Below are positions 8,173 to 58,800 of a stretch of DNA of 64,000 bases, in pieces. Location of the stretch: contig NC_081365.1 of the NCBI RefSeq assembly GCF_030684315.1, positions 47,911,205 to 47,975,204 on the forward strand, given 5' to 3'. The DNA comes from Stegostoma tigrinum (taxonomy: Eukaryota). Under the pieces are notes generated by a model, which saw nothing but the letters and a program-made list of their open reading frames with translations, was not told where the DNA came from and searched no databases. Made by a program: the position numbers and the translations under genes. Numbering within the stretch: position 1 is the first letter of the stretch; each line of letters starts with the position of its first letter.

Positions 8173-8836
8173 ATAACAAAGTGTGGAGCTCGATGAACAC
8201 AGCAGGCCCAGCAGCATCTCAGGAGCACAAAAGCTGACGTTTCGGGTCTAGACCCTTCATCAGAGAGGGGGATGGGGAGAGGGAACTGGAATAAATAGGG
8301 AGAGAGGGGGAGGCGGACCGAAGATGGAGAGAAAAGAAGATAGGTGGAGAGGAGAGTATAGGTGGGGAGGTAGAGAGGGGATAGGCCAGTCCAGGGAAGA
8401 CGGACAGGTCAAGGAGGCGGGATGAGGTTAGTACGTAGGAGACGGAGGTGTGGCTTGGGGTGGGAGGAGGGGATAGGTGAGAGGAAGAACAGGTTAGGGA
8501 GGCGGAGACAGGCTGGGCTGGTTTTGGGATGCAGTGAGGGGAGGGGACGAGCTGGGCTAACCTCATCCCGCCTCCTTGACCTGTCCATCTTCCCTGGACT
8601 GACCTATCCCCTCCCTACCTCCCCACCTATACTCTCTTCACCACCTATCTTCTTTTCTCTCCATCTTCGGTCTGCCTCCCCCCTCTCCCTATTTATTCCA
8701 GAACCCTCTCCCCAATCCCTCTCTGAGGGCCTGAAACGTCAGATTTTGTGCTCCTAAGATGCTGCCTGGCCTGCTGTGTTCATCCAGCTTCGCACTTTCT
8801 TATCTTGGATTCTCCAGCATCTGCAGTTCCCATTCT
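8173..8836. mobile_element. Two-armed inverted PLE insertion (minus arm 8173-8558, plus arm 8557-8836)
   Basis: Both arms are the PLE 3' UTR with 3' ends outward; 16-bp TSD CAAAGGGA(T/C)TGCTAAT at 8157-8172 and 8837-8852; 2-nt junction overlap CT. Confidence 0.9.
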
Positions 8837-10411: not shown

Positions 10412-10439
10412 GACGTTTCGGGCCTAGACCCTTCATCAG
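10412..10439 (-). ncRNA. Minimal type I hammerhead ribozyme motif in PLE 3' region
   Basis: CTGATGA-aGGGtctaggCCC-GAAA-C-GTC core with palindromic ACGT stem III, as known for PLE-encoded minimal hammerheads. Confidence 0.75.
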
Positions 10440-10663
10440 AGAGGGGGATGGGGGGAGGGAACTGGAATAAATAGGGAGAGAGGGGGAGGCGGACCGAAGA
10501 TGGAGAGTAAAGAAGATAGGTGGAGAGAGTGTAGGTGGGGAGGTAGGGAGGGGATAGGTCAGTCCAGGGAAGACGGACAGGTCAAGGAGGTGGGATGAGG
10601 TTAGTAGGTAGCGGGGGGTGCGGCTTGGGGTGGGAGGAAGGGATGGGTGAGAGGAAGAACCGG

Positions 10664-12129
10664 TTAGGGAGGCAGAGACAGGTTGGACTGGTTTTGGGAT
10701 GCAGTGGGTGGGGGGGAAGAGCTGGGCTGGTTGTGTGGTGCAGTGGGGGGAGGGTACGAACTGGGCTGGTTGAGGGATGCAGTAGGGGAAGGGGAGATTT
10801 TGAAACTGGTGAAGTCCACATTGATACCATATGGCTGCAGGGTTCCCAGGCGGAATATGAGTTGCTGTTCCTGCAACCTTCGGGTGGCATCATTGTGGCA
10901 GTGCAGGAGGCCCATGATGGACATGTCATCAAGAGAATGGGAGGGGGAGTGGAAATGGTTGGCGACTGGGAGGTGCAGTTGTTTTTTGCGAACTGAGCGG
11001 AGGTGTTCTGCAAAGCGGTCCCCAAGCCTCCACTTGGTTTCCCCAATGTAGAGGAAGCCGCACCGGGTACAGTGGATGCAGTATACCACATTGGCAGATG
11101 TGCAGGTGAACCTCTGCTTGATGTGGAATGTCATCTTGGGGCCTGGGATGGGGGTGAGGGAGGAGGTGTGGGGACAAGTGTAGCATTTCCTGCGGTTGCA
11201 GGGGAAGGTGCCGGGTGTGGTGGGGTTGGAGGGCAGTGTGGAGCGAACAAGGGAGTCACGGAGAGAGTGGTCTCTCCGGAAAGCAGACAGGGGAGGGGAT
11301 GGAAAAATGTCTTGGGTGGTGGGGTCGGATTGTAAATGGCGGAAGTGTCGGAGGATAATGCGTTGTATCCGGAGGTTGGTAGGGTGGTGTGTGAGAACGA
11401 GGGGGATCCTCTTGGGGCGGTTGTGGCGGGGGCGGGGTGTGAGGGATGTGTCGCGGGAAATGCGGGAGACGCGGTCAAGGGCGTTCTCGATCACCGTGGG
11501 GGGAAAGTAGCGGTCCTTAAAGAACTTGGACATCTGGGATGTGCGGGAGTGGAATGTCTTGTCGTGGGAGCAGATGCGGCGGAGGCGGAGGAATTGGGAA
11601 TAGGGGATGGAATTTTTGCAGGAGGGTGGGTGGGAGGAGGTGTATTCTAGGTAGCTGTGGGAGTCGGTGGGCTTGAAATGGACATCAGTTACAAGCTGGT
11701 TGCCTGAGATGGAGACTGAGAGGTCCAGGAAGGTGAGGGATGTGCTGGAGATGGCCCAGGTGAACTGAAGGTTGGGGTGGAAGGTGTTGGTGAAGTGGAT
11801 GAACTGTTCGAGCTCCTCTGGGGAGCAAGAGGCGGCGCCGATACAGTCATCAATGTACCGGAGGAAGAGGTGGGGTTTGGGGCCTGTGTAGGTGCGGAAG
11901 AGGGACTGTTCCACGTAACCTACAAAGAGGCAGGCATAGCTGGGGCCCATGCGGGTGCCCATGGCCACCCCTTTAGTCTGTAGGAAGTGGGAGGAGTCAA
12001 AAGAGAAGTTGTTGAGTGTGAGGACGAGTTCAGCTAGGCGGATGAGAGTGTCGGTGGAGGGGGACTGGTCGGGCCTGCGGGACAGGAAGAAGCGGAGGGC
12101 CTTGAGGCCATCTCCATGCGGAATGCAGG
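10664..12129 (-). CDS. PLE polyprotein, partial RT + GIY-YIG endonuclease (about 488 codons open; the ORF track's N-terminal ~22 aa come from flank)
   Basis: ORF 10664-12196; element sequence ends near 12129, judged by comparison with the older copy at ~63120. Confidence 0.9.
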
Positions 12130-12974
12130 AGTACTTTTGTTCGCAGTAGGTGCAGTGACCATGAAGCAGAGCTACTGTAGCAAAGTCAGGAACCATAGAA
12201 TTAAGTTACACTGGACTGCAGTATCAAGAATGTCATTGTCCTTTTATCACATTAAATGAGCCCAATTTAAAAGCTAGAAGGGACAGAGTCTAACAGAAAA
12301 AGATAATTTGAAGTCTTTTAAATCAATAAGAATGGGCGATTAAAGCACAATTTTGCCAAGAAATGTTTTTAAGGCTGCAACCATAAAGCTGTTTTGGAAA
12401 GTAATGCAAGGGGATATGCATTGTACTTCAGGCTGTGAAAGTTGGGAAAGTGTCCACTTTGTCAATGATAAAATGGAAAATCCTTAACTTAGCCGCAGAA
12501 AATGCAGAAAACTGCCACTTAACCTGCAGACGGCAGGAGACCACTATTTTGGGGGTAAAGGTGTGGGAAATCCACCAGTAAGCTGTATTGTTATTTAACA
12601 AAATTTAAAGCTTTATTAGAGAAAAAATACAGCATTGCTACAATATATGATTTATAGCTTTAAAAGAAGAAAATAATACAACTTTTTAAAGGTAAACAAG
12701 ATAAAACAGCATTATATAATGTAGACTATAAAATCTATTTAGCAGAGACAGAAACGCAGCAGTGTTTAGATAACACCGAAGACATCTTGAAAGGATGAAT
12801 CATAAATAATTACACCAAGAAGACATGGCAGGAGATATAATAATATTGTAGAGATTTAATTTCAGAGATGCACTAAATAAAACTCAATACTGGATATCTT
12901 AGTGAAAACAACACTTACGGCGCAGTTTTTCAGCATTAAATACTAAATCTGTAGTTGATTAAGTAAATACACTA

Positions 12975-16406: not shown

Positions 16407-18015
16407 AGATAATAAAATGTGAGGCTGGATGAACACAGCAGGCCAAGCAGCATCTCAGGAGCACAAAAGCTGACGTTTCGGGCCTAGACCCTTCAACAGA
16501 GAGGGGGATGGGGGGAGGGAACTGGAATAAATAGGGAGAGAGGGGGAGGCGGACCGAAGATGGAGAGTAAAGAAGATAGGTGGAGAGGGTGTAGGTGGGG
16601 AGGTAGGGAGGGGATTGGTCAGTCCAGGGAAGACGGACAGGTCAAGGAGGTGGGATGAGGTTAGTAGGTAGCTGGGGGTGCGGCTTGGGGTGGGAGGAAG
16701 GGATGGGTGAGAGGAAGAACCGGTTAGGGAGGCAGAGACAGGTTGGACTGGTTTTGGGATGCAGTGGGTGGGGGGGAAGAACTGGGCTGGTTGTGTGGTG
16801 CAGTGGGGGGAGGGGATGAACTGGGCTGGTTTAGGGATGCAGTAGGGGAAGGGGAGATTTTGAAACTGGTGAAGTCCACATTGATACCATATGGCTGCAG
16901 GGTTCCCAGGCGGAATATGAGTTGCTGTTCCTGCAACCTTCGGGTGGCATCATTGTGGCACTGCAGGAGGCCCATGATGGACATGTCATCAAGAGAATGG
17001 GAGGGGGAGTGGAAATGGTTTGCGACTGGGAGGTGCAGTTGTTTGTTGCGAACTGAGCGGAGGTGTTCTGCAAAGCGGTCCCCAAGCCTCCGCTTGGTTT
17101 CCCCAATGTAGAGGAAGCCGCACCGGGTACAGTGGATGCAGTATACCACATTGGCAGATGTGCAGGTGAACCTCTGCTTAATGTGGAATGTCATCTTGGG
17201 GCCTGGGATGGGGGTGAGGGAGGAGGTGTGGGGACAAGTGTAGCATTTCCTGCGGTTGCAGGGGAAGGTGCCGGGTGTGGTGGGATTGGAGGGCAGTGTG
17301 GAGCGAACAAGGGAGTCACGGAGAGAGTGGTCTCTCCGGAAAGCAGACAGGGGAGGGGATGGAAAAATGTCTTGGGTGGTGGGGTCGGATTGTAAATGGC
17401 GGAAGTGTCGGAGGATAATGCGTTGTATCCGGAGGTTGGTAGGGTGGTGTGTGAGAACGAGGGGGATCCTCTTGGGGCGGTTGTGGCGGGGGCGGGGTGT
17501 GAGGGATGTGTCGCGGGAAATGCGGGAGACGCGGTCAAGGGCGTTCTCAATCACCGTGGGGGGAAAGTTGCGGTCCTTAAAGAACTTGGACATCTGGGAT
17601 GTGCGGGAGTGGAATGTCTTATCGTGGGAGCAGATGCGGCGGAGGCGGAGGAATTGGGAATAGGGGATGGAATTTTTGCAGGAGGGTGGGTGGGAGGAGG
17701 TGTATTCTAGGTAGCTGTGGGAGTCGGTGGGCTTGAAATGGACATCAGTTACAAGCTGGTTGCCTGAGATGGAGACTGAGAGGTCCAGGAAGGTGAGGGA
17801 TGTGCTGGAGATGGCCCAGGTGAAGTGAAGGTTGGGGTGGAAGGTGTTGGTGAAGTGGATGAACTGTTCGAGCTCCTCTGGGGAGCAAGAGGCGGCGCCG
17901 ATACAGTCATCAATGTACCGGAGGAAGAGGTGGGGTTTGGGGCCTGTGTAGGTGCGGAAGAGGGACTGTTCCACGTAACCTACAAAGAGGCAGGCATAGC
18001 TGGGGCCCATGCGGG
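16407..18015 (-). mobile_element. Young Penelope-like retroelement, 5'-truncated single arm (short 3' end)
   Basis: Near-identical to the 10310-12129 copy; 428-aa open frame 16724-18010; hammerhead core mutated to CTGTTGA; inserted into an old SINE. Confidence 0.95.
16724..18010 (-). CDS. PLE polyprotein fragment (RT C-terminal half + GIY-YIG)
   Basis: RYIDD, CNRRKCYTCPH, VVYCIHCTRCGFLYIGETKRRLGDRFAEH; no stops. Confidence 0.9.
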   Translation of the reverse strand: MGPSYACLFVGYVEQSLFRTYTGPKPHLFLRYIDDCIGAASCSPEELEQFIHFTNTFHPNLHFTWAISSTSLTFLDLSVSISGNQLVTDVHFKPTDSHSYLEYTSSHPPSCKNSIPYSQFLRLRRICSHDKTFHSRTSQMSKFFKDRNFPPTVIENALDRVSRISRDTSLTPRPRHNRPKRIPLVLTHHPTNLRIQRIILRHFRHLQSDPTTQDIFPSPPLSAFRRDHSLRDSLVRSTLPSNPTTPGTFPCNRRKCYTCPHTSSLTPIPGPKMTFHIKQRFTCTSANVVYCIHCTRCGFLYIGETKRRLGDRFAEHLRSVRNKQLHLPVANHFHSPSHSLDDMSIMGLLQCHNDATRRLQEQQLIFRLGTLQPYGINVDFTSFKISPSPTASLNQPSSSPPPTAPHNQPSSSPPPTASQNQSNLSLPP

Positions 18016-18764: not shown

Positions 18765-19011
18765 CATAGATAATGAAGGTGAAGATCTTCTCACGGTTGA
18801 TTAGATTTTGGCCAGAGCCACAGTGAACAGTTGAAATTAGAAACTGCCAGAGATGATCAACTGTGAGACTTATATAAGAACATTATTTATGCCATGGCCT
18901 GACAGTATGAAATAAGTGTATGAGACAATTTGTTCATAAGAAGGACAAACTTGGTATATTGTGCCAGTTCATCTTCAAGAGCAAACAATATCAAAAGCAT
19001 TATGCCAAGAA

Positions 19012-20863
19012 AACAAAATGTGAGGCTGGATGAACACAGCAGGCCAAGCAGCATCTCAGGAGCACAAAAGCTGACGTTTCGGGCCTAGACCCTTCATCAG
19101 AGAGGGGGATGGGGAGAGGGAACTGGAATAAATAGGGAGAGAGGGGGAGGCGGACCGAAGATGGAGAGTGAAGAAGATAGGTGGAGAGAGTATAGGTGGG
19201 GAGGTAGGGAGGGGATAGGTCAGTCCAGGGAAGACGGACAGGTCAAGGAGGTGGGGTGAGGTTAGTGGGTAGATGGGGGTGCGGCTTGGGGTGAGAGGAA
19301 GGGATGGGTGAGAGGAAGAACCGGTTAGAAAGGCAGAGACAGGTTGGACTGGTTTTGGGATGCAGTGGGTGGAGGGGAAGAGCTGGGCTGGTTGTGTGGT
19401 GCAGTGGGGGGAGGGGACGAACTGGGCTGGTTTAGGGATGCAGTAGGGGAAGGGGAGATTTTGAAACTGGTGAAGTCCACATTGATACCATATGGCTGCA
19501 GGGTTCCCAGGCGGAATATGAGTTGCTGTTCCTGCAACCTTCGGGTGGTATCATTGTGGCAGTGCAGGAGGCCCATGATGGACATGTCATCTAGAGAATG
19601 GGAGGGGGAGTGGAAATGGTTTGCGACTGGGAGGTGCAGTTGTTTGTTGCGAACTGAGCGGAGGTGTTCTGCAAAGCGGTCCCCAAGCCTCCGCTTGGTT
19701 TCCCCAATGTAGAGGAAGCCGCACTGAGTACAGTGGATGCAGTATACCACATTGGCAGATGTGCAGGTGAACATCTGCTTAATATGGAATGTCATCTTGG
19801 GGCCTGGGATAGGGGTGAGGGAGGAGGTGTGGGGGCAAGTGTAGCATTTCCTGCAGTTGTAGGGGAAGGTGCCGGGTGTGGTGGGGTTGGAAGGCAGTGT
19901 GGAGCGAACAAGGGAGTCACGGAGAGAGTGGTCTCTCCGGAAAGCAGACAGGGCTGGGGATGGAAAAATGTCTTGGGTGGTGGGGTCGGATTGTAAATGG
20001 CGGAAGTGTCGGAGGATGATGCGTTGTAAGCCCCAAGATGACATTCCACATTAAGCAGAGGTTCACCTGCACATCTGCCAATGTGGTATACTGCATCCAC
20101 TGTACTCGGTGCGGCTTCCTCTACATTGGGGAAACCAAGCGGAGGCTTGGGGACCGCTTTGCAGAACACCTCCGCTCAGTTCGCAACAAACAACTGCACC
20201 TCCCAGTCGCAAACCATTTCCACTCCCCCTCCCATTCTCTAGATGACATGTCCATCATGGGCCTCCTGCACTGCCACAATGATACCACCCGAAGGTTGCA
20301 GGAACAGCAACTCATATTCCGCCTGGGAACCCTGCAGCCATATGGTATCAATGTGGACTTCACCATTTTCAAAATCTCCCCTTCCCCTACTGCATCCCTA
20401 AACCAGCCCAGTTCGTCCCCTCCCCCCACTGCACCACACAACCAGCCCAGCTCTTCCCCCCCACCCACTGCATCCCAATACCAGTCCAACCTGTCTCTGC
20501 CTCCCTAACCGGTTCTTCCTCTCACCCATCCCTTCCTCCCACCCCAAGCCGCACCCCCATCTACCCACTAAGCTCATCCCACCTCCTTGACCAGTCCGTC
20601 TTCCCTGGACTGACCTATCCCCTCCCTACCTCCCCACCTATACTCTCTCCACCTATCTTCTTCACTCTCCATCTTCGGTCCGCCTCCCCCTCTCTCCCTA
20701 TTTATTCCAGTTCCCTCTCCCCATCCCCCTCTCTGATGAAGGGTCTCCGCCCGAAACGTCAGCTTTTGTGCTCCTGAGATGCTGTTTGGCCTGCTGTGTT
20801 CATCTAGCCTCACATTTTGTTATCTTGGAATTCTCCAGCATCTGCAGTTCCCATTATCTCTGA
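19012..20863. mobile_element. Two-armed inverted PLE insertion (minus arm 19012-20028, plus arm 20030-20863)
   Basis: Both arms encode GIY-YIG + 3' UTR + hammerhead (19073-19100 minus; 20733-20760 plus); 14-bp TSD CATTATGCCAAGAA at 18998-19011 and 20864-20877; inserted in the Gypsy integrase region. Confidence 0.95.
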
Positions 20864-21611
20864 CATTATGCCAAGAATATGAGATCCATATTATACCAGA
20901 AACACATGGCTATTGTACACACAAGTCAGCTAGCACATGAATCTGTGCACTGGGCAGGGATAATTCAAGGTATGCAATGACTTGCATGTGACTAATGCCA
21001 AATACATCAAGCCTAGCATTGAAGGGAACCTCTTTATCCACATGAAGTTCCATCCATTCCTTGGATAAAAGTAGCAACAGTACTATTCAGAAATGGGAAT
21101 CTTACATCTTTGTGATGAATTACTTCTCTCAATTTCCCATGGTTCAACAACATAACAGTGCAATAAGCATTACCATTGCTGATACATTCAATATTATTTT
21201 CAGTTTATTTGGTATTACAGATCATATACAGTCTAACAATGGACCACAGCACATTGGCAAATCATTTCAAGATGTACACTAAGTAGGGGGTAATGCATAT
21301 TGTATTATCACCTATCTACTGATGCTCATGTGGTCTAGCAAAACATACAATTCATACTATTAAATCAATAATCATTATTGGACCATCCGCAAAGAAAGAT
21401 TTTCACATTACATTACTGTATGTTGTGCAACGCCAATGGAGAGGGGATTACCATCTATAGCATAATTTATACTCAGAAGGCAAACATAAACCCCACTTTG
21501 CAGAGCAAATAAAACACTCTTCTTGAAAGACAAATGAGAATTAAAGAGATGGAAGAGATAGGAGCAAGTAAATAACTAGCACAAATGTGCACTGAACAGA
21601 CTGTGTGAATT

Positions 21612-24800: not shown

Positions 24801-24942
24801 GCTGTTAGAAGGGTTGGAAATTGAAGCCTTGGTGCCTGAGCTGTTTACCCTCCCAAGAAAACACATTTAAACATGTCAAAAAAGAACACGGTCCTATCTT
24901 CTTGGCACACTGGTTTCCAAAGAGGTATTATATTTCTCAGAG

Positions 24943-25094
24943 ATAACAAAGTGTGGAGCTGGATTAACACAGTGGGCTAAGCAGCATCTTAGGAGCTTTT
25001 GTGCTCCTAAGATGCTGCTTGGCCTGCTGTGTTCATCCAGCGCCACACTTTGTTATCTCGGATTCTCTAGCATCTGCAGTTCCCATTATCTCTG
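24943..25094. mobile_element. Miniature two-armed PLE insertion
   Basis: 16-bp TSD ATTATATT(T/C)CTCAGAG at 24927-24942 and 25095-25110; junction microhomology AGC. Confidence 0.85.
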
Positions 25095-25393
25095 ATTATA
25101 TTCCTCAGAGGCTGCAGTTACAAGAACAAGTGAGTCTCCATTCCAGTGCCTTTTTCCAGAGAAGACAGAGGCTTCACACCAAACCAAGGCTACCAAAATT
25201 CCTAATATATGGCAACACCTGTCCTATCTAACCTAGTCTGTAGGCTTTCAACCTCATTCTCTCCATAGTTACGGTACGAGTATTTAGAAAACACCAAGGA
25301 TTTATGTTCCTCTCCTGATCAAGGGGATTAAAATAATTGTTTGCATTGGTCACCTGATGACATGACTGTTTTTTACATGTCTTGCATTTGCAT

Positions 25394-29270: not shown

Positions 29271-29998
29271 GCTACACTGTTTCCATGTATGCAAACTAGT
29301 TTGCACAATAGTATTATCAGCATTCAGTAGAAGATTAGTGTGCAATGTTTGTGGTTCGTCAGCCCAAGAGGCGCCTGTGGTTGTGGTCTCTGATGTGTTC
29401 TTGTATTTTCCAAAGCCATTAAACAACTAGTCTGACAAACAGCATAACAGTAAAATTTGACAACAAAATTGTGCAAGATATTATTTGATGCATGGTTATT
29501 TTTGCTATATTATGTTGTAAATCAATGATAGTAATTGCTCAGGATTAGAACATTTTATTGTTGATTATTTCTGTCGAGAAGTTCAGAGTCATCTGTAAAT
29601 GCTAAAGATTCATTTTCCAAAATTGTTAAAACCACAGGTGATTATGAGAAAGTTTACTGGGTGGAGCAAAGGTACTGTAAGGATTCTGGGTGAAAGTAGA
29701 TTTGGCAATCACAACTAGCAAATATACTGATGTTAATCATTTAAAAAAAAAACTCCTGTTTTTGGTATCTCCATGCAAACAGCAGTAAAACTTCGTGAAT
29801 GAAAATGAACTCTCAGGACGTTATTAACTTAACTTTATAATTCATGTAATCCTGATGTATATCCTGTTTAATTATGCTTATTATTTCTGTACATTAATAT
29901 GTTAATTAGTGATTTAAACCTCTTAATTTCCTTTTCTTCCTTAAAATTCTTTCCACTTGTCAAGATTTTCTTCATCTTGCCTGACAGATAACATACCC

Positions 29999-30168
29999 GA
30001 GATAACAAGGTGTGGAGCTGGATGAACACAGCAGGCCAAGCAGCATCAGAGGAGCAGGAAAGCTGACATTTCGGGCCTGGACACTTCCTGTGTTTGGGCC
30101 TGCTGTGTTCATCCAGCTCTACACCTTGTTATCTCAGATTGTCCAGCATCTGCAGTTCCTACTATCTT
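29999..30168. mobile_element. Miniature two-armed PLE insertion (second subfamily) in intron 4 of the Ig gene
   Basis: Inverted PLE 3' ends, right arm with tail; degraded flanking repeat AGATAACA. Confidence 0.75.
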
Positions 30169-30941
30169 AGATAACACAACCTCTCTGGCTCAGTCTCTTT
30201 TTTCGCTATTTATTCGTATTTCACATTAACAGCATCATTCTTTTTGTAGAGACAAATAACTGCCTTCCCACAGATTTCCACCAAGCTGAGGGCAAACTTG
30301 AAAGAGAATCCTGACAGAAATTAACAAAGACTTTCAAGCAATTTCCCTCATCATTCATTGCCTTTCAGTAAATCTATATTGGCATATCAATTGTTTAATA
30401 AGTAACCACATTTCATTACTAAATTTCAGAGAGGGGCCTGTTTTTAGAGATCAATTACGTTGTGGGCATTTACAATGTTGGGTTATTTTTCTTTAAGTTA
30501 ATTCTTGAGTGTGGGTATTGCTGACAAGAACAGCATTTATTGCACACATATCATTGCCCTAACTGGTGTTGGAGTTTGTGAGAAACTTTGTCTTGAATTG
30601 CATAGTATTTTGATAAAACTGAATGACTTGCTAAATCATTTTTGAGGGCAGATAAGAATTAAGCAAATTAATTAGGTACTACAGTTCTCAAATGGTAGGT
30701 AGGGATTGCAGGTTTCCTCACTAAAGCGTATTAGAGAACTATTTTATTGACATTTCAACAATTTCAATTTATTTTACTGATTCCAGTTTACTTTCTCTAT
30801 TTATACTTTTTAAACAAGATATTTTAATCAATGCTTATTTTCGTCACCTATTGGTTCCTGTTAAGTACCAAGCATAGAACTTTTTTTTTGTTTTGCATTC
30901 TCAGTCACGTAACTAACCATTTTTATTTTGTCTTCACTTAC

Positions 30942-33500: not shown

Positions 33501-34325
33501 AAAAGATGCTTGATTAATTTGCAGATCTGATAGTATTCTGATCTGTTTTGACATAATCCCACTAATTTCATAAAATGCAACTCTCACTTTGTCAGTTTAT
33601 AAAATCTTTGGAATAGTGTATATAACTGCAGTGGCATGGTTTTCATCCATAAGCTACAGTCCATAATGTAAACAAATCCAAATTGCAAGAACCAAGCAAT
33701 GAAAATATGGGTTTATGATTAATGAAGATGACAGAGAAGTTTGGAGTTAGACTGATAATGTTTTCTATGGGTGGGCATTAATGGTAAAAGTATGATGTTC
33801 CTTTCATACTGCACATGAACAGGGCACTATACTGTTGGTTCCTCATTCACTAATCCGACACAGACATAATTAACCTTGCTGCATTTAAAAAAGCAGAACA
33901 CTAGGCCTGTTTGAAAGACTAGCTCCTCACTGAAGGTGAGAAGCAAAACAATTTTAAGCAGTGAGAGAGAGAGAGCTGCATACAACAGGATACAGTTATA
34001 AAGCAAACATAAAATCTTGAAACCATATGTTTTGCTTCTGATTAAAAAATTGCAGATTCTGGAAATTTGAAATTAAAATATAAAGGACTGGAGTAACTCA
34101 GCAATTTTGTACCATCCGTGGAGAGAGAAGCAGAATTCTGAGTGTAACAGCTCTTCTTTGGAAACTCAGTTTGTGAACTTACTCTTTCACAATTCAGAAA
34201 AGAGATAAATAATTTATTGACTTTGATACGGTTGCTCTCCAAACGGATGGAAGGAGAGTGAAAGATCCACTTTCATGCATGCCCTGCACACAATTCTTAG
34301 CTTCAGCCAACTGAGACCAGAATTA

Positions 34326-34550
34326 GTGATAATGGGAACTGCAGATGCTGGAGAATCCAAGATAATAAAACATGAGGCTGGATGAACACAGCAGGCCCAG
34401 CAGCATCTCAGGAGCACAAAAGCTGACGTTTCGGGCCTAGACCCTTCATCATCATCTCTCTGATGAAGGGTCTAGGCCCGAAACGTCAGCTTTTGTGCTC
34501 CTGAGATGCTGCTGGGCCTGCTGTGTTCATCCAGCCTCACATTTTATTAC
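34326..34550. mobile_element. Young miniature two-armed PLE insertion in intron 2 of the Ig gene
   Basis: Near-perfect palindrome whose arms meet at the hammerhead core (intact plus-strand core 34460-34487); 15-bp TSD CTGAGACCAGAATTA at 34311-34325 and 34551-34565. Confidence 0.9.
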
Positions 34551-35884
34551 CTGAGACCAGAATTATTTTTGTTTAATATGGCTGGTATATAGTAACCCCG
34601 TTCCTTGTTGTGTGGAGAACATGATGGTGTTTCAATTCATGTTTGTAGATACAACTACGTACCCCCTGCTTGCAACTAGCCAGTTAAGAGTGAACCACAT
34701 TGGTAATGGGCTCAACCTGGTAAGAATAGCAGCTTTCCTTCCCAAAAGGGTGTAACCACACCAGATGAGTTTTCTTTAAACGGAATTCAAATTCTTAATT
34801 AGTTACCAAGTGACTGATAGGTCGACTAATCAAAACAGAAGAAATTCAGTTGCGGATCTTGATCAATGAATCTTCCTTTGCTCTCTAATTCAGTCTGTGC
34901 AACTGTTCGTGCTGTTTCCTTTCGGAGCTCTTTGTCACTGATATTTCTCCAAATTCTCCAACGAATTGTAAGCTGGTGCTTCCACTACTCACAGATTGGT
35001 GACTCAGACTCTCCGCCAGTTTTCTCTGTCTTTCCTTAAATCAAAGTGGGCGGGTCTGGGAGGGGTAAGAGGTGAGTGTGGTGAGATGCCCACTTGAACC
35101 ACTCACTCAACCCCGTCCCCAGCAACCTGCCCTGCAAAATATCTGTTCCCAATCAGTTTCAAGCAATCTGTTGATTGCATCATCCGAAAACCATAACCTT
35201 CACAGGATTTAAGACACTCCCCGTAACCTTCAAGAAAATACTGGGGATTTTCCTACTTATATAATGGTCAGACCACTAGGGCGACATAAAAGCTGAATAC
35301 CAAGACTTTCAGCGACACTGTTTCTTTTGTGGCCCACGCGCTAAATAATGGTCGTGACTGAATGACATTCAAGGAAGAGATGAAAAGGGGAAAAAAGAGA
35401 TGCTACAAAAAAAGTTCAGAATTTTAGCTCAGAGTCGTCAATGAGAATCGATCCTCAGAAAGCCAGACATGGGGGTGTAGATGAAATGACTCATTCACAT
35501 TCGAAGGACTCACGCTAACCATTTGCTTCATTGACAGATACTTTTTAATCTGAATGCAAACTAACTGCCGTTCCTTCAAGAATCCTTTGTCCTCCTCGCG
35601 AGAGGCAACATAAGTTGAATACTTGCACAGATCCTGCTGCTGTTTGCATTGCTTTTTTTCCCCTTTCCCGCGGGCAGAACTGTAATCTCGTGGGACTCGA
35701 TGTGTAAAATTGCCCCAAGCCAACCCTGAAGTAGGTGTTCTGAATAATGTACTTAATTGTCAACCTCTCTTTTTATTTGTAAAGAAAGAGATTGCTGGGA
35801 AAAAACTTGGTAGGTCTGGCAGCATCTGTAAAGACAAGCAGGATTAATGTTGTGAGTCCAGGGGCCCTTCCTTATTTTAAAAAT

Positions 35885-36450: not shown

Positions 36451-37101
36451 ACCTTCACAGATAATGAGTATCCTTAATCTACTGAATTTCTCCAGTAATT
36501 TCAGTTTTTGTTTCAGATTTCCAGCATTAGCAGTTTTTTTTAAAATAAATTGTTTCGTTCAATTTGGATTTTAATTTACGGGTTTGCCAGTTATGCTTCC
36601 TTTAAATTGGAACGGCGGGGGGGGGGGGGGGGGGGGGAGGTGGTGAACAGTTGACACCTGCAAATTTCTGTTGGCGCAGGTACATGACTTATGACTTATC
36701 ACAGTTAATCCTGATAGATTCGTTATAAACAAACAAGCGCCAAAGAAATAAAATGGTTTGATTCCCCGGTTTCTCCCTGTCGAATAGCCTACAAAGAGTT
36801 TAAAGGTTGCAGTTAGCTTTATTTGGCCGGTGTCTCTGCAACTTCATTTCTGTAATGTAATGATTGATGCACTTCATAGGGGCTCATGATATGGAAATAG
36901 CGAGCTAATAATCATTGATGCGGTAAAGTCGGTTCGATGAAGAGGTTACTCAAGTAAATAAGGTTCTCAGTAATACTTTAAGAGGAGAATCTCAGCTTTG
37001 CTGTTTAGCTCAGTTTTTCTTTCTCCTGCAGTTCCAGAAGTGACAAATAATACTGAGCAGCAACTTTTCCTGAGGGAGAACATAGCTGGTCTATTGTGTA
37101 A

Positions 37102-37234
37102 GAGAGAATGGGAACTGCAGATGCTGGAGATTCCAAGATAATAAAATGTGAGGCTGGATGAACACAGCAGGCCAAGCAGCATCTCAGGAGCTGCTTGGCC
37201 TGCTGTGTTCATCCAGCCTCACATTTTATTATCT
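37102..37234. mobile_element. Smallest two-armed PLE insertion (133 bp) in intron 2 of the Ig gene
   Basis: 15-bp TSD TGGTCTATTGTGTAA at 37087-37101 and 37235-37249; left arm has the tail, right arm is short; GC microhomology at the junction. Confidence 0.9.
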
Positions 37235-37496
37235 TGGTCTATTGTGTAATCCAGGTTTTGTTAAAAGGGCAAATGCAAACTACGAGGCCCAAGCAAAGAC
37301 AGCTCAATAATGTCAGAGCTATCCTCCATGGATTCACTTCCCGCACAATCTACATTGATAGGCACCGCTGGCATGCTTCTCATCACTTATAATCGTGTTT
37401 CCCCAACGCCAATGATTCATTGCAATTCGTTCCACGGATTGCAGTTATTAAACACTCCTTGAACGTCTCGAACGACATTGAACACACAATACTTAC

Positions 37497-37844: not shown

Positions 37845-37927
37845 CTGAAAGAGATGGTACACAAGGTTAGGCAACTGCTCCATTCCTGTGGGACACAGTG
37901 GCAACAAGAGGCGCCCGCATGAATTAC

Positions 37928-48639: not shown

Positions 48640-51185
48640 ATGGGTGTTACAGTCATGCTGTATTTGTACAGGATATTGATGAGGCCTCTTCTGGAATATT
48701 GTCTCCAGTTCTGGTCACCCAGTTATAGGAAGGATATTATTAAGCTAGAGATCGTTCACATTAGATTTACCAGGATGTTGCTGGGTATGGTGGGTTTGAG
48801 TTATAAAGGAAGCCTGTTTAGGCTCAGAGATAATGGGAAATGCAGATGCTGGAGATTCCAAGATAATAAAATGTGAGGCTGGATGAACACAGCAGGCCAA
48901 GCAGCATCTCAGGAGCACAAAAGCTGACGTTTCGGGCCTAGACCCTTCATCAGAGAGGGGGATGGGGGGAGGGAACTGGAATAAATAGGGAGAGAGGGGG
49001 AGGCGGACCGAAGACGGAGAGTAAAGAAGATAGGTGGAGAGGGTGTAGGTGGGGAGGTAGGGAGGGGATAGGTCAGTCCAGGGAAGACGGACAGGTCAAG
49101 GAGGTGGGATGAGGTTAGTAGGTAGCTGGGGGTGCGGCTTGGGGTGGGAGGAAGGGATGGGTGAGAGGAAGAACCGGTTAGGGGGGCAGAGACAGGTTGG
49201 ACTGGTTTTGGGATGCAGTGGGTGGGGGGAAGAGCTGGGCTGGTTGTGTGGTGCAGTGGGGGGAGGGGATGCACTGGGCTGGTTTAGGGATGCAGTAGGG
49301 GAAGGGGAGATTTTGAAACTGGTGAAGTCCACATTGATACCATATGGCTGCAGGGTTCCCAGGCGGAATGTGAGTTGCTGTTCCTGCAACCTTCGGGTGG
49401 CATCATTGTGGCACTGCAGGAGGCCCATGATGGACATGTCATCAAGAGAATGGGAGGGGGAGTGGAAATGGTTTGCGACTGGGAGGTGCAGTAGTTTGTT
49501 GCGAACTGAGCGGAGGTGTTCTGCAAAGCGGTCCCCAAGCCTCCGCTTGGTTTCCCCAATGTAGAGAAAGCCGCACTGGGTACAGTGGATGCAGTATACC
49601 ACATTGGCAGATGTGCAGGTGAACCTCTGCTTAATGTGGAATGTCATCTTGGGGCCTGGGATGGGGGTGAGGGAGGAGGTGTGGGGACAAGTGTAGCACC
49701 AACCGCCCCAAGAGGATCCCCCTCGTTCTCACACACCACCCTACCAACCTCCGGATACAACGCATTATCCTCCGACACTTCCGCCATTTACTATCCGACC
49801 CCACCACCCAAGACATTTTTCCATCCCCTCCCCTGTCTGCTTTCCGGAGAGACCACTCTCTCCGTGACTCCCTTGTTCGCTCCACACTGCCCTCCAACCC
49901 CACCACACCCGGCACCTTCCCCTGCAACCGCAGGAAATGCTACATTTGTCCCCACACCTCCTCCCTCACCCCCATCCCAGGCCCCAAGATGACATTCCAC
50001 ATTAAGCAGAGGTTCACCTGCACATCTGCCAATGTGGTATACTGCATCCACTGTACCCGGTGCGGCTTCCTCTACATTGGGGAAACCAAGCGGAGGCTTG
50101 GGGACTGCTTTGCAGAACACCTCCGCTCAGTTCGCAACAAACTACTGCACCTCCCAGTCGCAAACCATTTCCACTCCCCCTCCCATTCTCTTGATGACAT
50201 GTCCATCATGGGCCTCCTGCAATGCCACAATGATGCCACCCGAAGGTTGCAGGAACAGCAACTCATATTCCGCCTGGGAACCCTGCAGCCATATGGTATC
50301 AATGTGGACTTCACCAGTTTCAAAATCTCCCCTTCCCCTACTGCATCCCTAAACCAGCCCAGTGCATCCCCTCCCCCCACTGCACCACACAACCAGCCCA
50401 GCTCTTCCCCCCCACCCACTGCATCCCAAAACCAGTCCAACCTGTCTCTGCCCCCCTAACCGGTTCTTCCTCTCACCCATCCCTTCCTCCCACCCCAAGC
50501 CGCACCCCCAGCTACCTACTAACCTCATCCCACCTCCTTGACCTGTCCGTCTTCCCTGGACTGACCTATCCCCTCCCTACCTCCCCACCTACACCCTCTC
50601 CACCTATCTTCTTTACTCTCCATCTTCGGTCCGCCTCCCCCTCTCTCCCTATTTATTCCAGTTCCCTCCCCCCATCCCCCTCTCTGATGAAGGGTCTAGG
50701 CCCGAAACGTCAGCTTTTGTGCTCCTGAGATGCTGCTTGGCCTGCTGTGTTCATCCAGCCTCACATTTTATTAGCCTGTTTAGGCTGGCCTTTTTTTCAC
50801 TGGAGTGTAGGAGATTGAGAGGTTTATAGAGGCTTATAAAAATCATGAGGCGTGTTGACAGGGTTAATGATAGTTGACTTTTCCCTGGATGGGGAATATT
50901 AAGATTGGGAGCATATTTTTAAGGTGAGAGGAGAGAGATTTAAAAAAGACATGAGAGGCAATTTTTTTCCACGAATGGTGGTTCGCATGTGGGTGACACT
51001 CCTGAGGAAGTGGCGGATGTGGATAAAGTTACAAAATTTAAAAGTCATTTAGATAAATACATGAATAAGAAATGTGTGAGGGATATGGGCCAGGAGCAGG
51101 CAGATGGAACTAGTTTAGTTTAGGATTATTTTCGGCATGCGCTGGTTGGTCCAAAAGGTTCTATTTCTGTGCTGTATGACTCTAT
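48640..51185 (+). mobile_element. CR1 3' fragment nested in the Harbinger transposase, split by a PLE pair
   Basis: LYRILMRPLLEYCLQFWSP on the left; continuation and TGTATGACTCTATG tail on the right of the PLE. Confidence 0.8.
48825..50772. mobile_element. Two-armed inverted PLE insertion (minus arm 48825-49698, plus arm 49700-50772)
   Basis: 14-bp perfect TSD AGCCTGTTTAGGCT at 48811-48824 and 50773-50786; hammerheads at 48926-48953 (-) and 50684-50711 (+). Confidence 0.95.
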
Positions 51186-54023
51186 GTGCGGCTTTTCCAA
51201 GGATTAAAGCTGTGAGTTCCTGCCAAATGTCATGAGCCATGATCTGAGGGGAATCCCTTATTACTGACAACTCATCCCCGTATGTGCTGAGGTGGACCAA
51301 AAGATTTAGTGAGTGCTTCGAAATATATGCATTATGCCTGCTTCCTGGACAACATGTCCAGGCCTGCATTCTCTGCCTGGCATGATCACAGATGATCTAC
51401 ATGTTAATGGACAGGAAGTTTTCCCTATTCATAAATGCTGCTGGATGGTGACGGGGTGCTCTGAAAACTACATTAGTACAATCAATTGCACCTTGCACTA
51501 AAGAAATCCTGCAATGGCAGCAAAGCCGATGGCTCTGTCTGCCTCACTCTCTGCATCCTAGTGAAGCTGATAAATTGTTGTGTTTTAGCAAAGAAAGTAT
51601 CTTAGTTTATGAGTGGATGCTATGAGATTGCACAGGGATTCCCAATGGCTCCTTGAAATGATCCACGTGAATAGCAATTGAGGATCATTGTCACCTTCAA
51701 GGCAACTAGAATGGGATTGCTTCCTAGGCCATGAGAATTCAAGTACTCATCTAGCAGCTGGCAGATGTAAGTAGTACCTTCCTGGGGCATCCTGAGGTGT
51801 TGTTGACACTGCTATTCTGTCAAAGGCAAATGTCTCTGGTGAAGCCCGTCAGCTTGGTTTGAGACCAATGCTCTCCGTCTATGTGGTGAGAGCCCTCTTG
51901 AACAGGATGTTATGTCCCTGCAGACTGTTCCAAATCCAATGCCAGATCCTGCTGCTGCTCATGTTGTTGCCATTGGAGCAGGAAATGTCTGTGGTTTCTT
52001 CTGAGAAACAAAATGATCAGAAAACTGGCAGGATTGATGTTGCAATTGTGAATTGCTTTCAGGAGATCTGTGGAGACAGTAATGTCATGTTTCTCTCAGG
52101 TTTTCACACTGTTAGCCTGTCTGATCACTCATGAGAAAATCCTTCATTTACTATATTTCCCACCTGGTCCCCTCCCAACCCAGCATGCGTGTGTATGAAA
52201 ACTGCATCCCTTGTGGATTCAAAGTACAGCTCCTTGTGCTGGCAGTGTGCACTGACTTTGTATACTGAGGGCAGCCAGGGCACCTTCCCATAATCAATAG
52301 TCAGCTTTCCTTCAGGGAGTTCAAACCTCTCTAATGTGATCATGGCATCAAGAGCAGATGTCATCACTCCCTCCCCCCCAACTAAATCCCTGTTCTTGCC
52401 ATTTTTCCCTATGTGGAAGTGCAATGCAGCTAGGAAGCTAAAATGTGCTGTCTAATGGGATAGGATGTGATCTGGTTGCAAATCTGGAAAACATTCCACC
52501 CACTCTGAGTGTGTGGTTGCAGCCATTTTTCATTTCCATTGTGCATTGTTACAATTCACATGAGGATGGAAAACAACACAGTTCACATATGGCCCAGTTA
52601 ATTGTAGGGTCAGCCTGGCAATCAAAAGCACACCCTCCCACCAACTTCCCTTTTCCTTTCTTCTTGGCACTCCCCATTGACCCCATCAGGACTGAACTTC
52701 TACATGCTCTTTCACACCTCTTTCATCTTTGCCAGATGCTAGCAGCACCTTTTACCGTACCTTGTTCCTTCCATGCTCTTCTTCCTCTTCTATATCCCCT
52801 GTAAATATACCAGTTTTATTTCGTCCAAACCAATTTGCCATTGCTGTACGGAATGCTCAGGGCATGTTGCAACTGCCTTCTTAGGTGTCACATGCGCCTA
52901 TCAATTATCGCAGTGTCTGGAGTACATTCCCTTCTGATGTGCATTAGCCTTTGTCGCTTCTACCGCCAATGACAGTCTAACCGCTCTCACTAATTCCTTA
53001 ATTCCCATCCTGAGCTGTACATGCCTTCCTCATAAAGTGATGTAGCCCCCCCTTCAACTCCATGTTATCATATAACCATTTCATATCCCAAAAACTTCCT
53101 TACATGTTAGCCCATTGAGTGTAGTATCACATTGTTTGTTAATCTAATTTCTAGTCACCACCACTGCTGAAGATTTGGATGGTCACCACCTATTTGAGAT
53201 TGTACTGTCCACTTATAGATTACCTTGATCAGTAACATCCTCAAACAGAAACTGTCATCAATAATTAATTACTAGCATTTAAATTCACCACACAATTGTT
53301 TGAACTAATGAGTCAGATCCTATGGCCCGCTTTTCCTTAAACTGTTCCAACTTCTCAACACAAAGCACATTTACAGTTTTTAGCTTCTACTGAGTCTTTG
53401 AAGCATCTTTACAATATTCTTAACAAGAATAATCCAACATTTCTATTTGACCCCAGGCACTAACAACTTTGACTATGTTCATCCTTTAAACATTTCAGAT
53501 CTCAAGTCCAGATCCAAATAAGCAAAGCAGTTTCCTTTATATCTGAATTTTGTCTTCTTAAATGTGTTGCCATTTCCCAGAGAAACAACATCTGTCAGTA
53601 TCTTTTCATCCTTTGTGTTTGCTGTAATCTTCACTGACTCCTATAGAAACCCTAGTTGTCTTCGCAGAATGTAATCAGATAGAAGTGTTTAACTTAAGAA
53701 TTAATTCCCGACTAGCATACCTTAAACTAGCTGGTTTTATTCTGAACTTCACCTTCTTACACATTGACCCAACTCTGTAATGAGACTGACTTTTACCTCC
53801 CAGCTGCCCATACAGATGGTTTTGACCTACCCATTCTGCTAGTGGCTCCTGAGAGATCTGCCTGGCATTTTGTCTTTCTTCTCCCACTGTCCTTCCTGCC
53901 AGCATGGTTCTGCCTACTCATCCTGATACTTCCTGTCCTTTCAGTTTCATCCACACCTGTCAGGTACGACTCCTTGCTCTAACTATGGGGAAGTAAATGA
54001 AAACAGATTCATCCAAATGCAGT

Positions 54024-55323
54024 GATAATGGGAACAGCAGATGCTGGAGAATCCAAGATAATAAAATGTGAGGCTGGATGAACACAGCAGGCCAAGCAGC
54101 ATCTCAGGAGCACAAAAGCTGACGTTTCGGGCCTAGACCCTTCATCAGAGAGGGGGATGGGGTGAGGGTTCTGGAATAAATAGAGAGAGAGGGGGAGGTG
54201 GACCGAAGATGGAGAGAAAAGAAGATAGGTGGAGAGAGTATAGGTGGGGAGGTAGGGAGGGGATAGGTCAGTCCAGGGAAGACAGACAGGTCAAGGAGGC
54301 GGGATGAGGTTAGTAGGTAGGAAATGGAGGTGTGGCTTCGGGTGGGAAGAAGGGATGGGTGAGAGGAAGAACCGGTTAGGGAGGCAGAGACAGGTTGGAC
54401 TGGTTTTGGGATGCAGTGCATGGAGGGGAAGAGCTGGGCTGGTTGTGTGGTGCAGTGGGGGGAGGGGACGAACTGGGCTGGTTTTGGGATGTGGTGGGGG
54501 GAGGGGAGATTTTGAAGCTGGTGAAGTCCACATTGATACCATTGGGCTGCAGGGTTCCCAAGCGGCATATAAGTTGCTGTTCCTGCATCCACTGTACCCA
54601 GTGTGGCTTCCTCTACATTGGGGAAACCAAGCGGAGGCTTGGGGACCGCTTTGCAGAACACCTCCGCTCAGTTCGCAATAAACAACTGCACCTCCCAGTC
54701 ACAAACCATTTCCACTCCCCCTCCCATTCTTTAGATGACGTGTCCAGCATGGGCCTCCTGCAGTGCCACAATGATGCCACCCGAAGGTTGCAGGAACAGC
54801 AACTCATATTCCGCTTGGGAACCCTGCAGCCTAATGGTATCAATGTGGACTTCACCAGCTTCAAAATATACCCTTCCCCCACCGCATCCCAAAACCAGCC
54901 CAGTTCGTCCCCTCCCCCCACTGCACCACACAACCAGCCCAGCTCTTCTCCTGCACCCACTGCATCCCAAAACCAGCCCAGACTGTCTCTGCTTCCCTAA
55001 CCGGTTCTTCCTCTCACCCATCCCTTCCTCCCACCCCAAGCTGCACCTCCATTTCCTACCTACTAACCTCATTCCGCCTCCTTGACCTGTCTGTCTTCCC
55101 TGGACTGACCTATCCCCTCCCTACCTCCCCACCTATACTCTCTTCTCCACCTATCTTCTTTTCTCTCCATCTTCAGTCCGCCTCCCCCTCTCTCCCTATT
55201 TATTCCAGCTCCCTCTCCCCATCCCCCTCTCTGATGAAGGGTCTAGGCCCGAAACATCAGCTTTTGTGCTCCTGAGATGCTGCTTGGCCTGTTGTGTTCA
55301 TCCAGCCTCACATTTCATTATCT
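54024..55323. mobile_element. Two-armed inverted PLE insertion (minus arm 54024-54587, plus arm 54583-55323)
   Basis: TSD TTCATCCAAATGCAGT at 54008-54023 and 55324-55339; 5-nt junction microhomology CTGCA; hammerheads at 54121-54148 (-) and 55231-55258 (+, GTC>ATC). Confidence 0.95.
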
Positions 55324-55689
55324 TTCATCCAAATGCAGTTCTGCAAATGTGACACGACCACGTGCAACAACACAAAATGATACTGGACAAACTAACGGAT
55401 CAATTTATGATTGTTTATTTCATATGTACATGTGGAGAGCCAGCTTTATCACCATGACATGCGAGGTTCATGCTTATCGGTTACAAAATACATTCCAGCT
55501 TCTTACAGACCATTGCTCTTCTCTGTCTCACATTACGTTTTGTTTCCCACACTCTTTAGAGGCATCCTCTGCATTTCATTCAAGGCCAGACCTAATTTGC
55601 TGATACTGCACATTTGGCCTGTCTTAGTTTATCTGTGGTTCCCCTTTCCTTTGACAATATGACTGAAAATTTAACTCTTCACTAACTGA

Positions 55690-55884
55690 GATAGTAGGAA
55701 CTGCTGATGCTGGAGGATCTGAGATAACACAGTGTAGAGCTGGATGAACACAGCAGGCCAAGCAGCATCAGAGGAGCAGGAAAGCTGACGTTTTTTTCTG
55801 AAGAAGTGTCTCGACCCGAAACGTCAGCTTTCCTGCTCCTCTGATGCTGCTTGGCCTGCTGTGCTCATCCAACTCTACACCGTA
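55690..55884. mobile_element. Miniature two-armed PLE insertion (second subfamily)
   Basis: 14-bp TSD TCTTCA(C/A)TAACTGA at 55676-55689 and 55885-55898; hammerhead-like core CTGAAGA..GAAACGTC at 55798-55825. Confidence 0.85.
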
Positions 55885-58800
55885 TCTTCAATAACTGAAA
55901 CTGATTCAACCCCTTCGGCTGTCAAATATAATTTGTTTCTCATTGATCTTCAGTGTGTATAACACATGATCAGATGAAATGTGCTAATCTGTTCTGTATT
56001 TGTAATCTTGAAACTGTTTAAAAATCTTATGAATTATAAATTCCACATTTGCCAATTTGTTGATCTATTAAATAGATCTGAAAGCTTACATTCTTCTGGT
56101 GCAGAGATTGAAACTGGTGAATTTGTTGTATTGTTTGACTGTTGACAGGCTATTAAAGTTATTGATATGGATGTTTATAGGAATGAATTTGTTCTCTTTG
56201 TACTTAACTCATTTTGTAATCTTGTTACATTCTAAGCTGATTACAGTTTTAGTTTGTAAATGTTGTTGGTGTAGTACTAACACAGAGAGTTGTTTAAGTT
56301 CCTGCTGCTCCAAATGCTAATTTCAATGTAATGTAGGGTTTTCTGTTACTGATATGGCTTCTTCACAGGGGTGAACTGAAAATAGGTTGCTGACACTGGT
56401 GCATGCGCTATACATTACTTAGATTCGCATTTGGGGTTTTGAATAGAGAGAAGGAGTGAGAATAGTGCATATGATGTGTCCCTGGAGATGGCAGGAGAGT
56501 GGGGGACTAGGCGATGTGGCATAGGACAGAGGGGCAGAATGTGGAGTGAGAGTGAGACAGAGGGGAGAGGGCTTCCACTCCATTCCACGTTCCCCACCCC
56601 CAACCTGGTCCTCACACCCTCTGCTGAACGTTCTTTCAGTATCACGTCATCTCTGCACATTCACTGTGTGGTCATTGTGTGTAATATTATCGAAAATTCG
56701 CACCATGTTATGGGTTTCGAATTGTGTATATGAGCATTTCCAGATTAGCAAATATGAGCAGTTGCAGGCGTCAGTAGATAGTGCCTTGAAAATCTTCCTT
56801 TTCCAAGATTGACAAAGGTTTTTGAGTTGAAATGTTCTCAATCTGACTTCATGCAAATAGATCCCATGATTTTTCTGACTGTATTAAAGATATCTACTGT
56901 AACATCATTGGCATTTATCTTTTCTTTGCAATCTAGGTATTTTTGTGGTGAATTTGATACTACATGATTAGTTTTGCACATTTTTCTTTACCCAAATTTC
57001 TGCCTTCTAACTAATGAAATTGATAACATTTCTTTGTTCTGTAAAACTTCAAATTTGCTATTCAAATGGTGGAAGTAATAAAGACTTCACGAGTTTCACT
57101 GTTAGGGCTTTGAGACATCAATTTGCAATATATATTCCTGATTTTGTTTCCATTTGCCAACAATGTTATTTAATCATGCGCCTGCAGAACTATCTTAAAT
57201 TTGCTTTGTTAAAGTTTCCATTGATTAAATAGTTCGGGAAATTTTTTAACTCAGTGTTAGAAGTCTAAAATATGGGCTCCTCAGCTTAACTCTTTCATAA
57301 AAGTTAACCTTTTATGACCTTTGCCTTAAGTGACTGGATCTGTTATCCTGACCTGGACTGGCCAATATGTAATTCCAGATTCAGAGTAATGTGATTGTCT
57401 CATAACTGCTCTTTGAAATAGCCGTAGCAAGCCACTCTATTCAAGAGGCAGTTAGGGACAGGCAATAATTGCTGGCGCCATCAGAAACACTCTCATCTGA
57501 TGAACAAAGGGGGAAAAGATACTCTTTCATGACTTATAATTTTCTGGTGGTTTGTCTAGAGGGGTTTCCATGCAGAAATAATTCCTTCATGGTGACTGTT
57601 CAGCGTTACGGTTTTTCTGGCTGCTGGATGGTCTTAAACCTGTACCAATGATTTCTTGAGAAGAGTTTTTAAACATTCTTTTCTTCTCCATTGAATTTGG
57701 GTTTTTTTTAAGGCTGGTCCCGGAGAAGGTAGTATCAAGGGCCGTCATCAAGCTGAGCCTTCACTATGTATTGTCATGCATTAATGCTGTGATACATGGT
57801 AATCACACTGGGCTCCGAATTATAACAACTCATTTACCTTCTTCACATGTTTAGATTCAGGTGATCTCAATGTGTCTTTCTGAGAGAGTATTGCAGCTTA
57901 GAGTCCTGTAGTCATCTTCCAGAGTGTTGTGACTGCCCACACAGTGGTATTTATGCTCAGCTCTGTGTAATTCCATGACATCATGATAATTGGGGTCCTA
58001 ATCCACTGACACAACATTATTAGTCAGCATATTAAAATTTGTTCTGTGAAAACAAAGGCCTGGATCATGTGGAGGTAATCATTGTTGTATTAACAGCTCT
58101 TTCCTTGAAAGCAGTGAACAATTTCCAAACTATAATTGTAGAGATGCAATAGCAAACTCACACCTGTCTATTGAATATTTTCATTTCTTATGCTATATAG
58201 TGAAAATCTATGGCGCATACTTACCCGGAGCACTTACAGAAAACAGTTATCTTCAGACGGCTACAAGCGCATCTTTGACAAGTTAGCAACAAAGCGTGCT
58301 GTGAGAAAGACAGACAAATCCAAATTTTAAATATCAATCAACAGCTTTCAATTTATAAGCTATTTACCACATTTCTAAGTTCTAACTGCATCTTGTCTTG
58401 GGACAGTTCCACTATCCATAAACTGGACTCCAGAAACATAATATGTTCTGACACATTTTTGACTGTATTTATGTACAAATAAAGTGGACTTACAGATTTC
58501 TCTTTTAAGGCTATTTAGCTAACAAAACATACAGTAAGAAAGAAAAAAAACTCTAACCACACAAAGCACGAATAAACAAAGTAAGTATTTATCTGTCGCT
58601 TACTTGGAACACACTGCACTCTGTTTTGACTATGCCATCAGTTTCTGAGGTTTTCCCTCTGACTGGTGTCTGCCTCTTTGCTCTGCATAGCGTCTGTTGG
58701 TGCAGTCTTTCACACTGTTTAAACCTGCATTGTAATTAACGGTTTCTATACTCCCTAGAACCTTCAACCCCTTTCTCTTTATCAGACCCAGTCTTGATCA

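Follow-up and report, generated by a model that had tools for sequence, protein, structure and literature searches.

Are the two arms of the inverted pair at 48825-50772 copies of a single template, as the private variants that they share led an earlier note to propose? We addressed this question within a window of 64,000 nucleotides of Stegostoma tigrinum DNA, the whole stretch analysed. The structure is a head-to-head pair of 5′-truncated Penelope-like copies within one perfect 14-bp target duplication (TSD), whereas a perfect 13-mer match arose by chance in 2 of 2000 random box pairs. Because a single TSD encloses both arms, we read the pair as one insertion event. Its parts and the other copies in the window are collected in Table 1. 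The 48-kb target site (48811-48824) is a near-palindrome with 5-bp arms and a 4-nt centre, which the other TSDs are not.

Table 1. Features of the 48-kb pair and other copies in the window (bracketed numbers, arm reach in nt)
Feature	Position	Strand	Remarks
48-kb pair: TSD, left copy, 14 bp	48811..48824	+	Identical to 50773-50786, 0 mismatches
48-kb pair: TSD, right copy	50773..50786	+	Identical to left copy
48-kb pair: left arm, 5′-truncated copy with 36-nt 3′ tail (48825-48860)	48825..49698	-	Reach 839 nt upstream of internal 3′ site
48-kb pair: right arm, 5′-truncated copy without tail, ends at internal site	49700..50772	+	Reach 1077 nt
48-kb pair: unpaired spacer within right arm	49700-49937	+	Part of tailless arm
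48-kb pair: head-to-head junction	49699	.	One extra base, no microhomology
48-kb pair: candidate hammerhead-ribozyme-like minimal core, left arm	48929..48953	-	Pattern match
48-kb pair: candidate hammerhead-ribozyme-like minimal core, right arm	50684..50708	+	Pattern match; Rfam silent
48-kb pair: ORF remnant (RT thumb region, CX4CxxC linker, GIY-YIG-type endonuclease with CCHH)	49701..50459	+	From translation
19-kb pair, 14-bp TSD	18998..20877	.	Tailless left (1021), tailed right (796); 5 exclusive shared variants
54-kb pair, 16-bp TSD	54008..55339	.	Tailed left (532), tailless right (735); discordant at lineage-marking sites
8-kb pair, 16-bp TSD (1 mismatch)	8157..8852	.	Tailless left (382), tailed right (258); discordant arms
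Short pair, 15-bp TSD	34311..34565	.	Tailed left (92), tailless right (97)
Short pair, 15-bp TSD	37087..37249	.	Tailed arm longer by 11 nt (exception)
Short pair, 16-bp TSD (1 mismatch)	24927..25110	.	Tailed arm longer by 9 nt (exception)
Short pair, related family, 15-bp TSD	5636..5882	.	Tailless arm longer
Short pair, related family, TSD decayed (8 nt found automatically)	29986..30180	.	Tailless arm longer
Short pair, related family, about 13-bp TSD with 1 mismatch	55676..55900	.	Tailless arm longer
Solo tailed copy, longest young copy (reference)	10309..12133	-	No TSD found
Solo tailless copy, nearest relative of 48-kb pair	16408..18015	-	No TSD of at least 7 bp found
Solo tailless older copy	4498..5248	+	7-bp TSD

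The element shows the traits of EN+ Penelope-like elements, with 5′ truncation, inverted copies, an optional 30-40-nt tail and a TSD. The young family is present in the window as 5′-truncated copies only, and its single ORF, with an RT followed at the C terminus by a GIY-YIG endonuclease, was recognized through the 803-aa homolog P0006, to which the window ORF of the 10-kb copy is 56% identical over 436 aa. Profile matches of P0006 (RVT_1, E 4e-6; GIY-YIG, E 5e-4) both lie below the Pfam cut-offs. Searched alone, the window ORFs of the element returned no Pfam family at E 0.001, and a piece of the 48-kb ORF remnant matched GIY-YIG (PF01541) only at E 0.11. Among 989 hits, the protein encoded by the longest young copy (10.3-12.1 kb) is closest to proteins of zebra shark (94%) and of whale shark (88%), which makes a carpet shark the probable host.

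Its translation contains a CxxC between the VVY and YIG positions with histidines downstream, as in the CCHH motif of EN+ Penelope-like elements, and a CX4CxxC linker between RT and EN. The available portions of PMC8557442 define the CCHH motif for EN+ elements and give a CX2-5CxxC linker as a feature of the Neptune and Nematis clades that is absent in Poseidon. By this motif, rather than by an RT tree, the element is classed as a putative Neptune/Nematis-type Penelope-like element. Our initial label, Poseidon, was dropped because the linker is present.

A hammerhead-ribozyme-like minimal core lies about 95 nt ahead of the 3′ end of the element, and the core pattern is found in both 48-kb arms; such motifs of Penelope-like elements are covered in the available part of PMC4209133. 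Rfam gave no match to the right-arm core at E 1, and the region folds no better than shuffled sequences (z 0.16). The 5′ ends of family copies accumulate at the start of this core, at 48954 (903 and 877 contigs with loose ends), which suggests that this place is a favored stopping point or the 5′ end of an RNA.

The family is very abundant, as one 1.4-kb stretch attracts 1.1-1.3% of reads. An older copy, about 80% identical, occupies 62200-64000 on the minus strand, extends further 5′ than any young copy and runs off the window. A pattern search for loci elsewhere gave no match in viral contigs or in genome contigs, and protein-based scans found no relative in 112 and 18 candidate stretches. 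The lone match in a metagenome contig was a bare 21-mer in DNA of 61% GC with no similarity beyond it, and was rejected as a relative.

We then compared the arms letter by letter. All the strings quoted in the earlier note, among them NKLLHL, PSASPPP, HNDTTRR and TGTACTC, occur in both arms of their pairs at the places given, and the claim of private variants held for two pairs. In the 48-kb pair, three variants are common to both arms and found in no other window copy (49493/50143, 49272/50364 and 49184/50453); the arms differ at 7 of 821 sites and by one gap, and the nearest other copy, at 16.4 kb, differs at 9-10 of 821-822. They are sisters in trees (support 96/92), and pairing either arm with this nearest solo copy was rejected (AU p 0.016). 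The 19-kb arms share five exclusive variants and differ at 16 of 779 sites, versus 22-26 to other young copies; the long alignment groups them as sisters (92-93/91-92), but two shorter alignments leave them unresolved. Non-mate pairings of the six young copies yielded no exclusive shared variant (0 of 13).

Read data show how rare these letters are in the family. The data were bisulfite reads from two samples of one study and contigs from two samples of another; reads were placed on the left arm at 80% likeness, with older subfamilies included, and cover two of the three shared 48-kb variants. At site 49184 the other letter of the family appears in 13538 of 13779 and 15641 of 15922 reads (98.2%), the same level as at arm-private control sites (98.4-98.5%), and at site 49272 in 10283 of 10556 and 11299 of 11687 (96.7-97.4%). 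Two of the three 48-kb variants are thus rare family-wide, at about 2-3% or less. The variants may still mark a subfamily, one with as many as some hundreds of members.

This rarity bears on the possibility that the pairs, or the variants that they share, are artefacts of assembly or polishing. Inverted Penelope-like structures do trouble assemblies, according to the available portions of PMC8557442, and none of the listed reads or contigs crosses the 48-kb junction. Mis-polishing, however, would pull letters toward the common allele, and the shared alleles are rare rather than majority ones. Each pair also has a distinct TSD, asymmetric tails and 1-8% arm divergence, so that an artefact appears very unlikely. 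Opposite-strand joints at 48824/48862 connect the tail end with the internal site (28 and 25 contigs); two tails may have been joined there, or the element may have inserted into its own end.

The distribution of the shared sites bears on a second alternative, in which gene conversion between the arms, or hairpin repair, later homogenized copies of unrelated templates. Pairing of long inverted repeats is established, and in a comparison of two sequences an old conversion followed by new mutation looks like common templating. The shared sites are spread across 310 nt in the 48-kb pair and 560 nt in the 19-kb pair, interspersed with arm-private differences rather than confined to one tract. Concordance should moreover grow with age under conversion, yet among the four long pairs the two oldest are the discordant ones, and tails, TSDs and polarity are left unexplained. 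We consider this explanation improbable.

For the 48- and 19-kb pairs, the proposal of one template for both arms therefore stands insofar as each pair stems from a common source lineage. That the same RNA molecule served both arms does not follow, because two RNAs from one locus would carry the same mutations of that locus as one RNA would. What the shared variants show is that both arms derive from one source locus, and not that they derive from one RNA molecule. An origin as RT or transcription errors was set aside, as three changes in 821 sites seem more than a single pass would leave at the error rates of these steps, in favor of mutations of the source locus.

The 54- and 8-kb pairs behave differently. 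The alleles shared by the 54-kb arms had been taken as private; among loose read ends of sample X15, read through bisulfite conversion, two of them, the 3-nt insertion allele (4289 reads) and the 54561/54815 allele (7037 reads), are instead the majority, and hence mark a common subfamily. Nor did these mates prove closer to each other than to other copies, as the earlier note had described them: the arms differ at 29 of 515 sites, and the left arm differs from the 4.5-kb solo copy at 27 of 512. Trees do not resolve the two arms as sisters. In both the 54- and the 8-kb pair, the arms differ at five non-CpG sites at which both alleles are found in other copies. The expected numbers of such lineage-marking differences are 1.18 (54 kb, P 0.005) and 0.67 (8 kb, P 0.0001), in a simulation that assumes uniform and independent sites, although some of the actual sites are neighbors or fall within a CT tract. 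Sisterhood is not rejected by AU tests (p 0.30 for 54 kb, p 0.24 for 8 kb). Given these p values and the assumptions of the simulation, we rejected as too strong the statement that two templates are proven; the discordance suggests that the arms had different templates or that other copies later converted them.

Arm differences, described in the earlier note as often at CpG, are only partly so (3 of 7 at 48 kb, 1 of 16 at 19 kb, and 6 of 29 and 4 of 18 in the other two long pairs, 14 of 70 in total). The 19-kb differences (19012-20863) have no CpG excess and include some adjacent double changes. LTR pairs are used as insertion clocks, since the two copies sit at one locus and diverge once inserted, and the suggestion that arm divergence could date insertions in the same way holds only for pairs shown to be sisters. 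Mirror pairs differ from LTR pairs in that identity at insertion is not guaranteed, as these two pairs illustrate, and in being inverted, variable in length and made without strand transfer. Divergence of the TSDs was considered as an independent clock and dropped, since two mismatches in 121 bp over eight pairs offer too few sites.

Evidence that the earlier note had not cited comes from the shape of the pairs. By self-comparison of the window we found all ten inverted pairs of the family and a close relative; six have arms below 100 nt, three were measured against the reference of the related family, and all lie in one window. Exactly one arm per pair carries the 3′ tail of about 36 nt (10 of 10), an outcome with a probability of at most 0.5^10 = 0.001 under independent choice of start site. 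The reaches of the two arms are coupled (Spearman 0.96 in the ten pairs, 0.81 in the six short ones), with no long-short pair. The tailless arm is the longer in eight pairs (sign test p 0.055, Wilcoxon p 0.01), leading by 124-238 nt in all four long ones; the two exceptions are short pairs. TSDs measure 14-16 bp in eight pairs and about 13 bp in a ninth and are decayed in one, versus 0-9 bp around four solo copies. Junctions have a 2-8 nt overlap (4 of 10) or 1-4 extra bases. The same short motif stands at both 3′ ends, 36 nt apart, and loose read ends accumulate at both sites family-wide (48826, 7954 reads in sample X15; 48861, 954 contigs in sample X1). Tailed arms pass through the internal site without a scar. 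A hairpin in the tail between the two start sites was not detected, as all four tail folds were no better than shuffles (z -0.23 to 0.14). Of the six short pairs, five (5.6, 24, 30, 34 and 55.7 kb) have an informative site at which the mates match, as judged by eye, whereas the 37-kb pair gives no information.

A single molecule is indicated by the rule of one tail per pair and by the polarity of the arms, and it is from the tail allotment together with the coupling of arm lengths that the one-RNA idea draws its real support. We infer that both target ends were probably primed in one event, and tentatively favor, as the best of several readings, twin priming in which one RNA is copied from two start sites, with the internal primer leading. 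In this scheme, the endonuclease, a predicted dimer, would nick both target strands 14-16 nt apart. One target 3′ end would prime at the end of the RNA tail, and the other at the internal site 36 nt upstream, which has the same short motif. The internally primed enzyme would lead, and the tail-primed enzyme would follow over the same stretch, displacing the first cDNA; this order would usually make the tailless arm the longer. The two cDNA ends would then be end-joined with the overlaps or extra bases seen, and the arms would start out identical, with the mutations of their source locus. A minority of the pairs (54 kb, 8 kb) would be explained by a second primer that engaged another RNA, or by later conversion of one arm by another copy. 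That two of the four long pairs need such a second template or later conversion counts against one RNA, as does the postulated displacement synthesis that the enzyme of the element would have to perform.

The available portions of Frangieh et al. 2024 (PMC11167929) describe a close parallel in vitro, in which the Poseidon protein PAc of Anolis, a predicted dimer, cleaves and extends both strands, with two adjacent RT start sites that bound the tail. PAc belongs to another clade and lacks the CX2-5CxxC linker present here. The start sites in vitro are alike on both strands, a point against the favored scheme, and these portions of the paper do not address inverted pairs or the service of one RNA to both strands. 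Target ends in the window often match 3-6 element bases at the internal start site (18998-19011, 24927-24942, 5636-5650 and 37235-37249), hinting at a possible primer-template pairing unlike the non-homologous priming reported in vitro.

The discordant pairs are accounted for best, and with no extra steps, if two RNAs were held by the dimer and both target ends were primed in one event, the arms being alike when one source locus dominates that cell and unlike when none does. Strand displacement is then unneeded, and two-RNA insertions in opposite orientation are documented for L1 in the accessible part of PMC11702581. Without an added asymmetry, two RNAs do not predict one tail per pair in 10 of 10 or the lead of the tailless arm; the young copies in the window moreover fall into four lineages, yet both young long pairs are sisters. 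We rank this reading second, as less likely than one RNA.

A third route would copy one RNA once, with the cDNA folding back to prime itself on the antisense template; the insertion would be completed by a short cDNA of the tail, made from the other target end. Such self-priming has been proposed for rotifer elements (PMC3846280, in its available portions), and a small unpaired spacer, coupled lengths, shared variants and the 2-8 nt overlaps at four of ten junctions come naturally with it. The 48- and 19-kb junctions, in contrast, have one extra base and no microhomology across loops of 225-238 nt. In eight of ten pairs each arm has unique sequence (the tail in one, a 5′ extension in the other) that a plain fold-back cannot make, the internal site is scar-free in tailed arms, and discordant arms would be impossible. 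Fold-back is therefore an improbable source of these pairs.

Twin priming on one RNA, our preferred reading, also has to be placed among known systems. For L1, twin priming was reportedly first described by Ostertag and Kazazian in 2001. As in L1, both target ends appear to be primed, the TSD is discrete and the inversion junction is end-joined; the available portions of PMC11702581 give TSDs of 12-18 bp for twin-primed L1 insertions. L1 products, however, are adjacent, non-overlapping RNA pieces (overlap or gap of 1-10 bp), whereas here the 3′ end is the starting point of both arms, so that the same 0.05-0.8 kb is present twice, with an overlap of 821 sites in the 48-kb pair. The 48-kb structure thus works like twin priming and differs from the L1-type product.

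Inverted copies that lie head-to-head and are tailed at one end have been described as typical of Penelope-like elements (Arkhipova et al. 2013, PMC3846280; Craig et al. 2021, PMC8557442). The available portions of these papers describe an inverted, 5′-truncated copy, head-to-head within one TSD, with a 30-40-bp tail on one end, as seen here, and a hammerhead motif near the 3′ end, the counterpart here being the candidate core. In those accounts the inverted copy, a short pLTR, adjoins an element that is full or in tandem, while here both arms are truncated alike and reach up to about 1 kb each; the TSDs are 14-16 bp here versus 8-10 bp there. The pair structure is therefore already known, and the element adds a new example; the mechanistic clue is real and comes from ten pairs in one window. 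A literature search, with subscription papers mostly beyond its reach, found no arm-to-arm sequence comparison, polarity count or one-RNA test for Penelope-like pairs.

The origin of the inverted structures and of the one-sided tail is stated as unresolved in the available portions of PMC8557442 and PMC11167929. Three features of the pairs can be counted, namely the allotment of the tail, the polarity of the arms and their concordance, and such counts could separate one-RNA, two-RNA and fold-back models. If the arms start identical, pairs date insertions, and discordant pairs mean that a sister test is needed first. It is plausible that Penelope-like elements routinely copy one RNA twice, with two RTs in convoy from look-alike sites 36 nt apart, and that most insertions are born as identical mirror pairs. 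Were this so, tail and inverted repeats would be explained in one step, and sharks would gain a dense clock for insertion age and neutral mutation.

Outside the ten-pair count, short head-to-head pairs of three other Penelope-like families lie at 12961-13233, 18545-18770 and 21614-21830. Each seemingly has one tailed arm, as judged by eye, and a 14-bp TSD was found for 12961-13233 only. An inverted pair at 60372-61305, unlike the Penelope family, has arms of about 255 nt at 87% identity, a 430-nt spacer and no TSD that we could find. An immunoglobulin V-set exon is encoded at 37417-37866 on the minus strand (PF07686, E 3.5e-9), and some 170 nt beyond this exon comes the 37-kb pair, so that the mirror pairs may sit in introns and give rise to long double-stranded RNA. 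A separate LINE-type RT remnant occupies 13584-15235 (RVT_1, E 1.3e-14).
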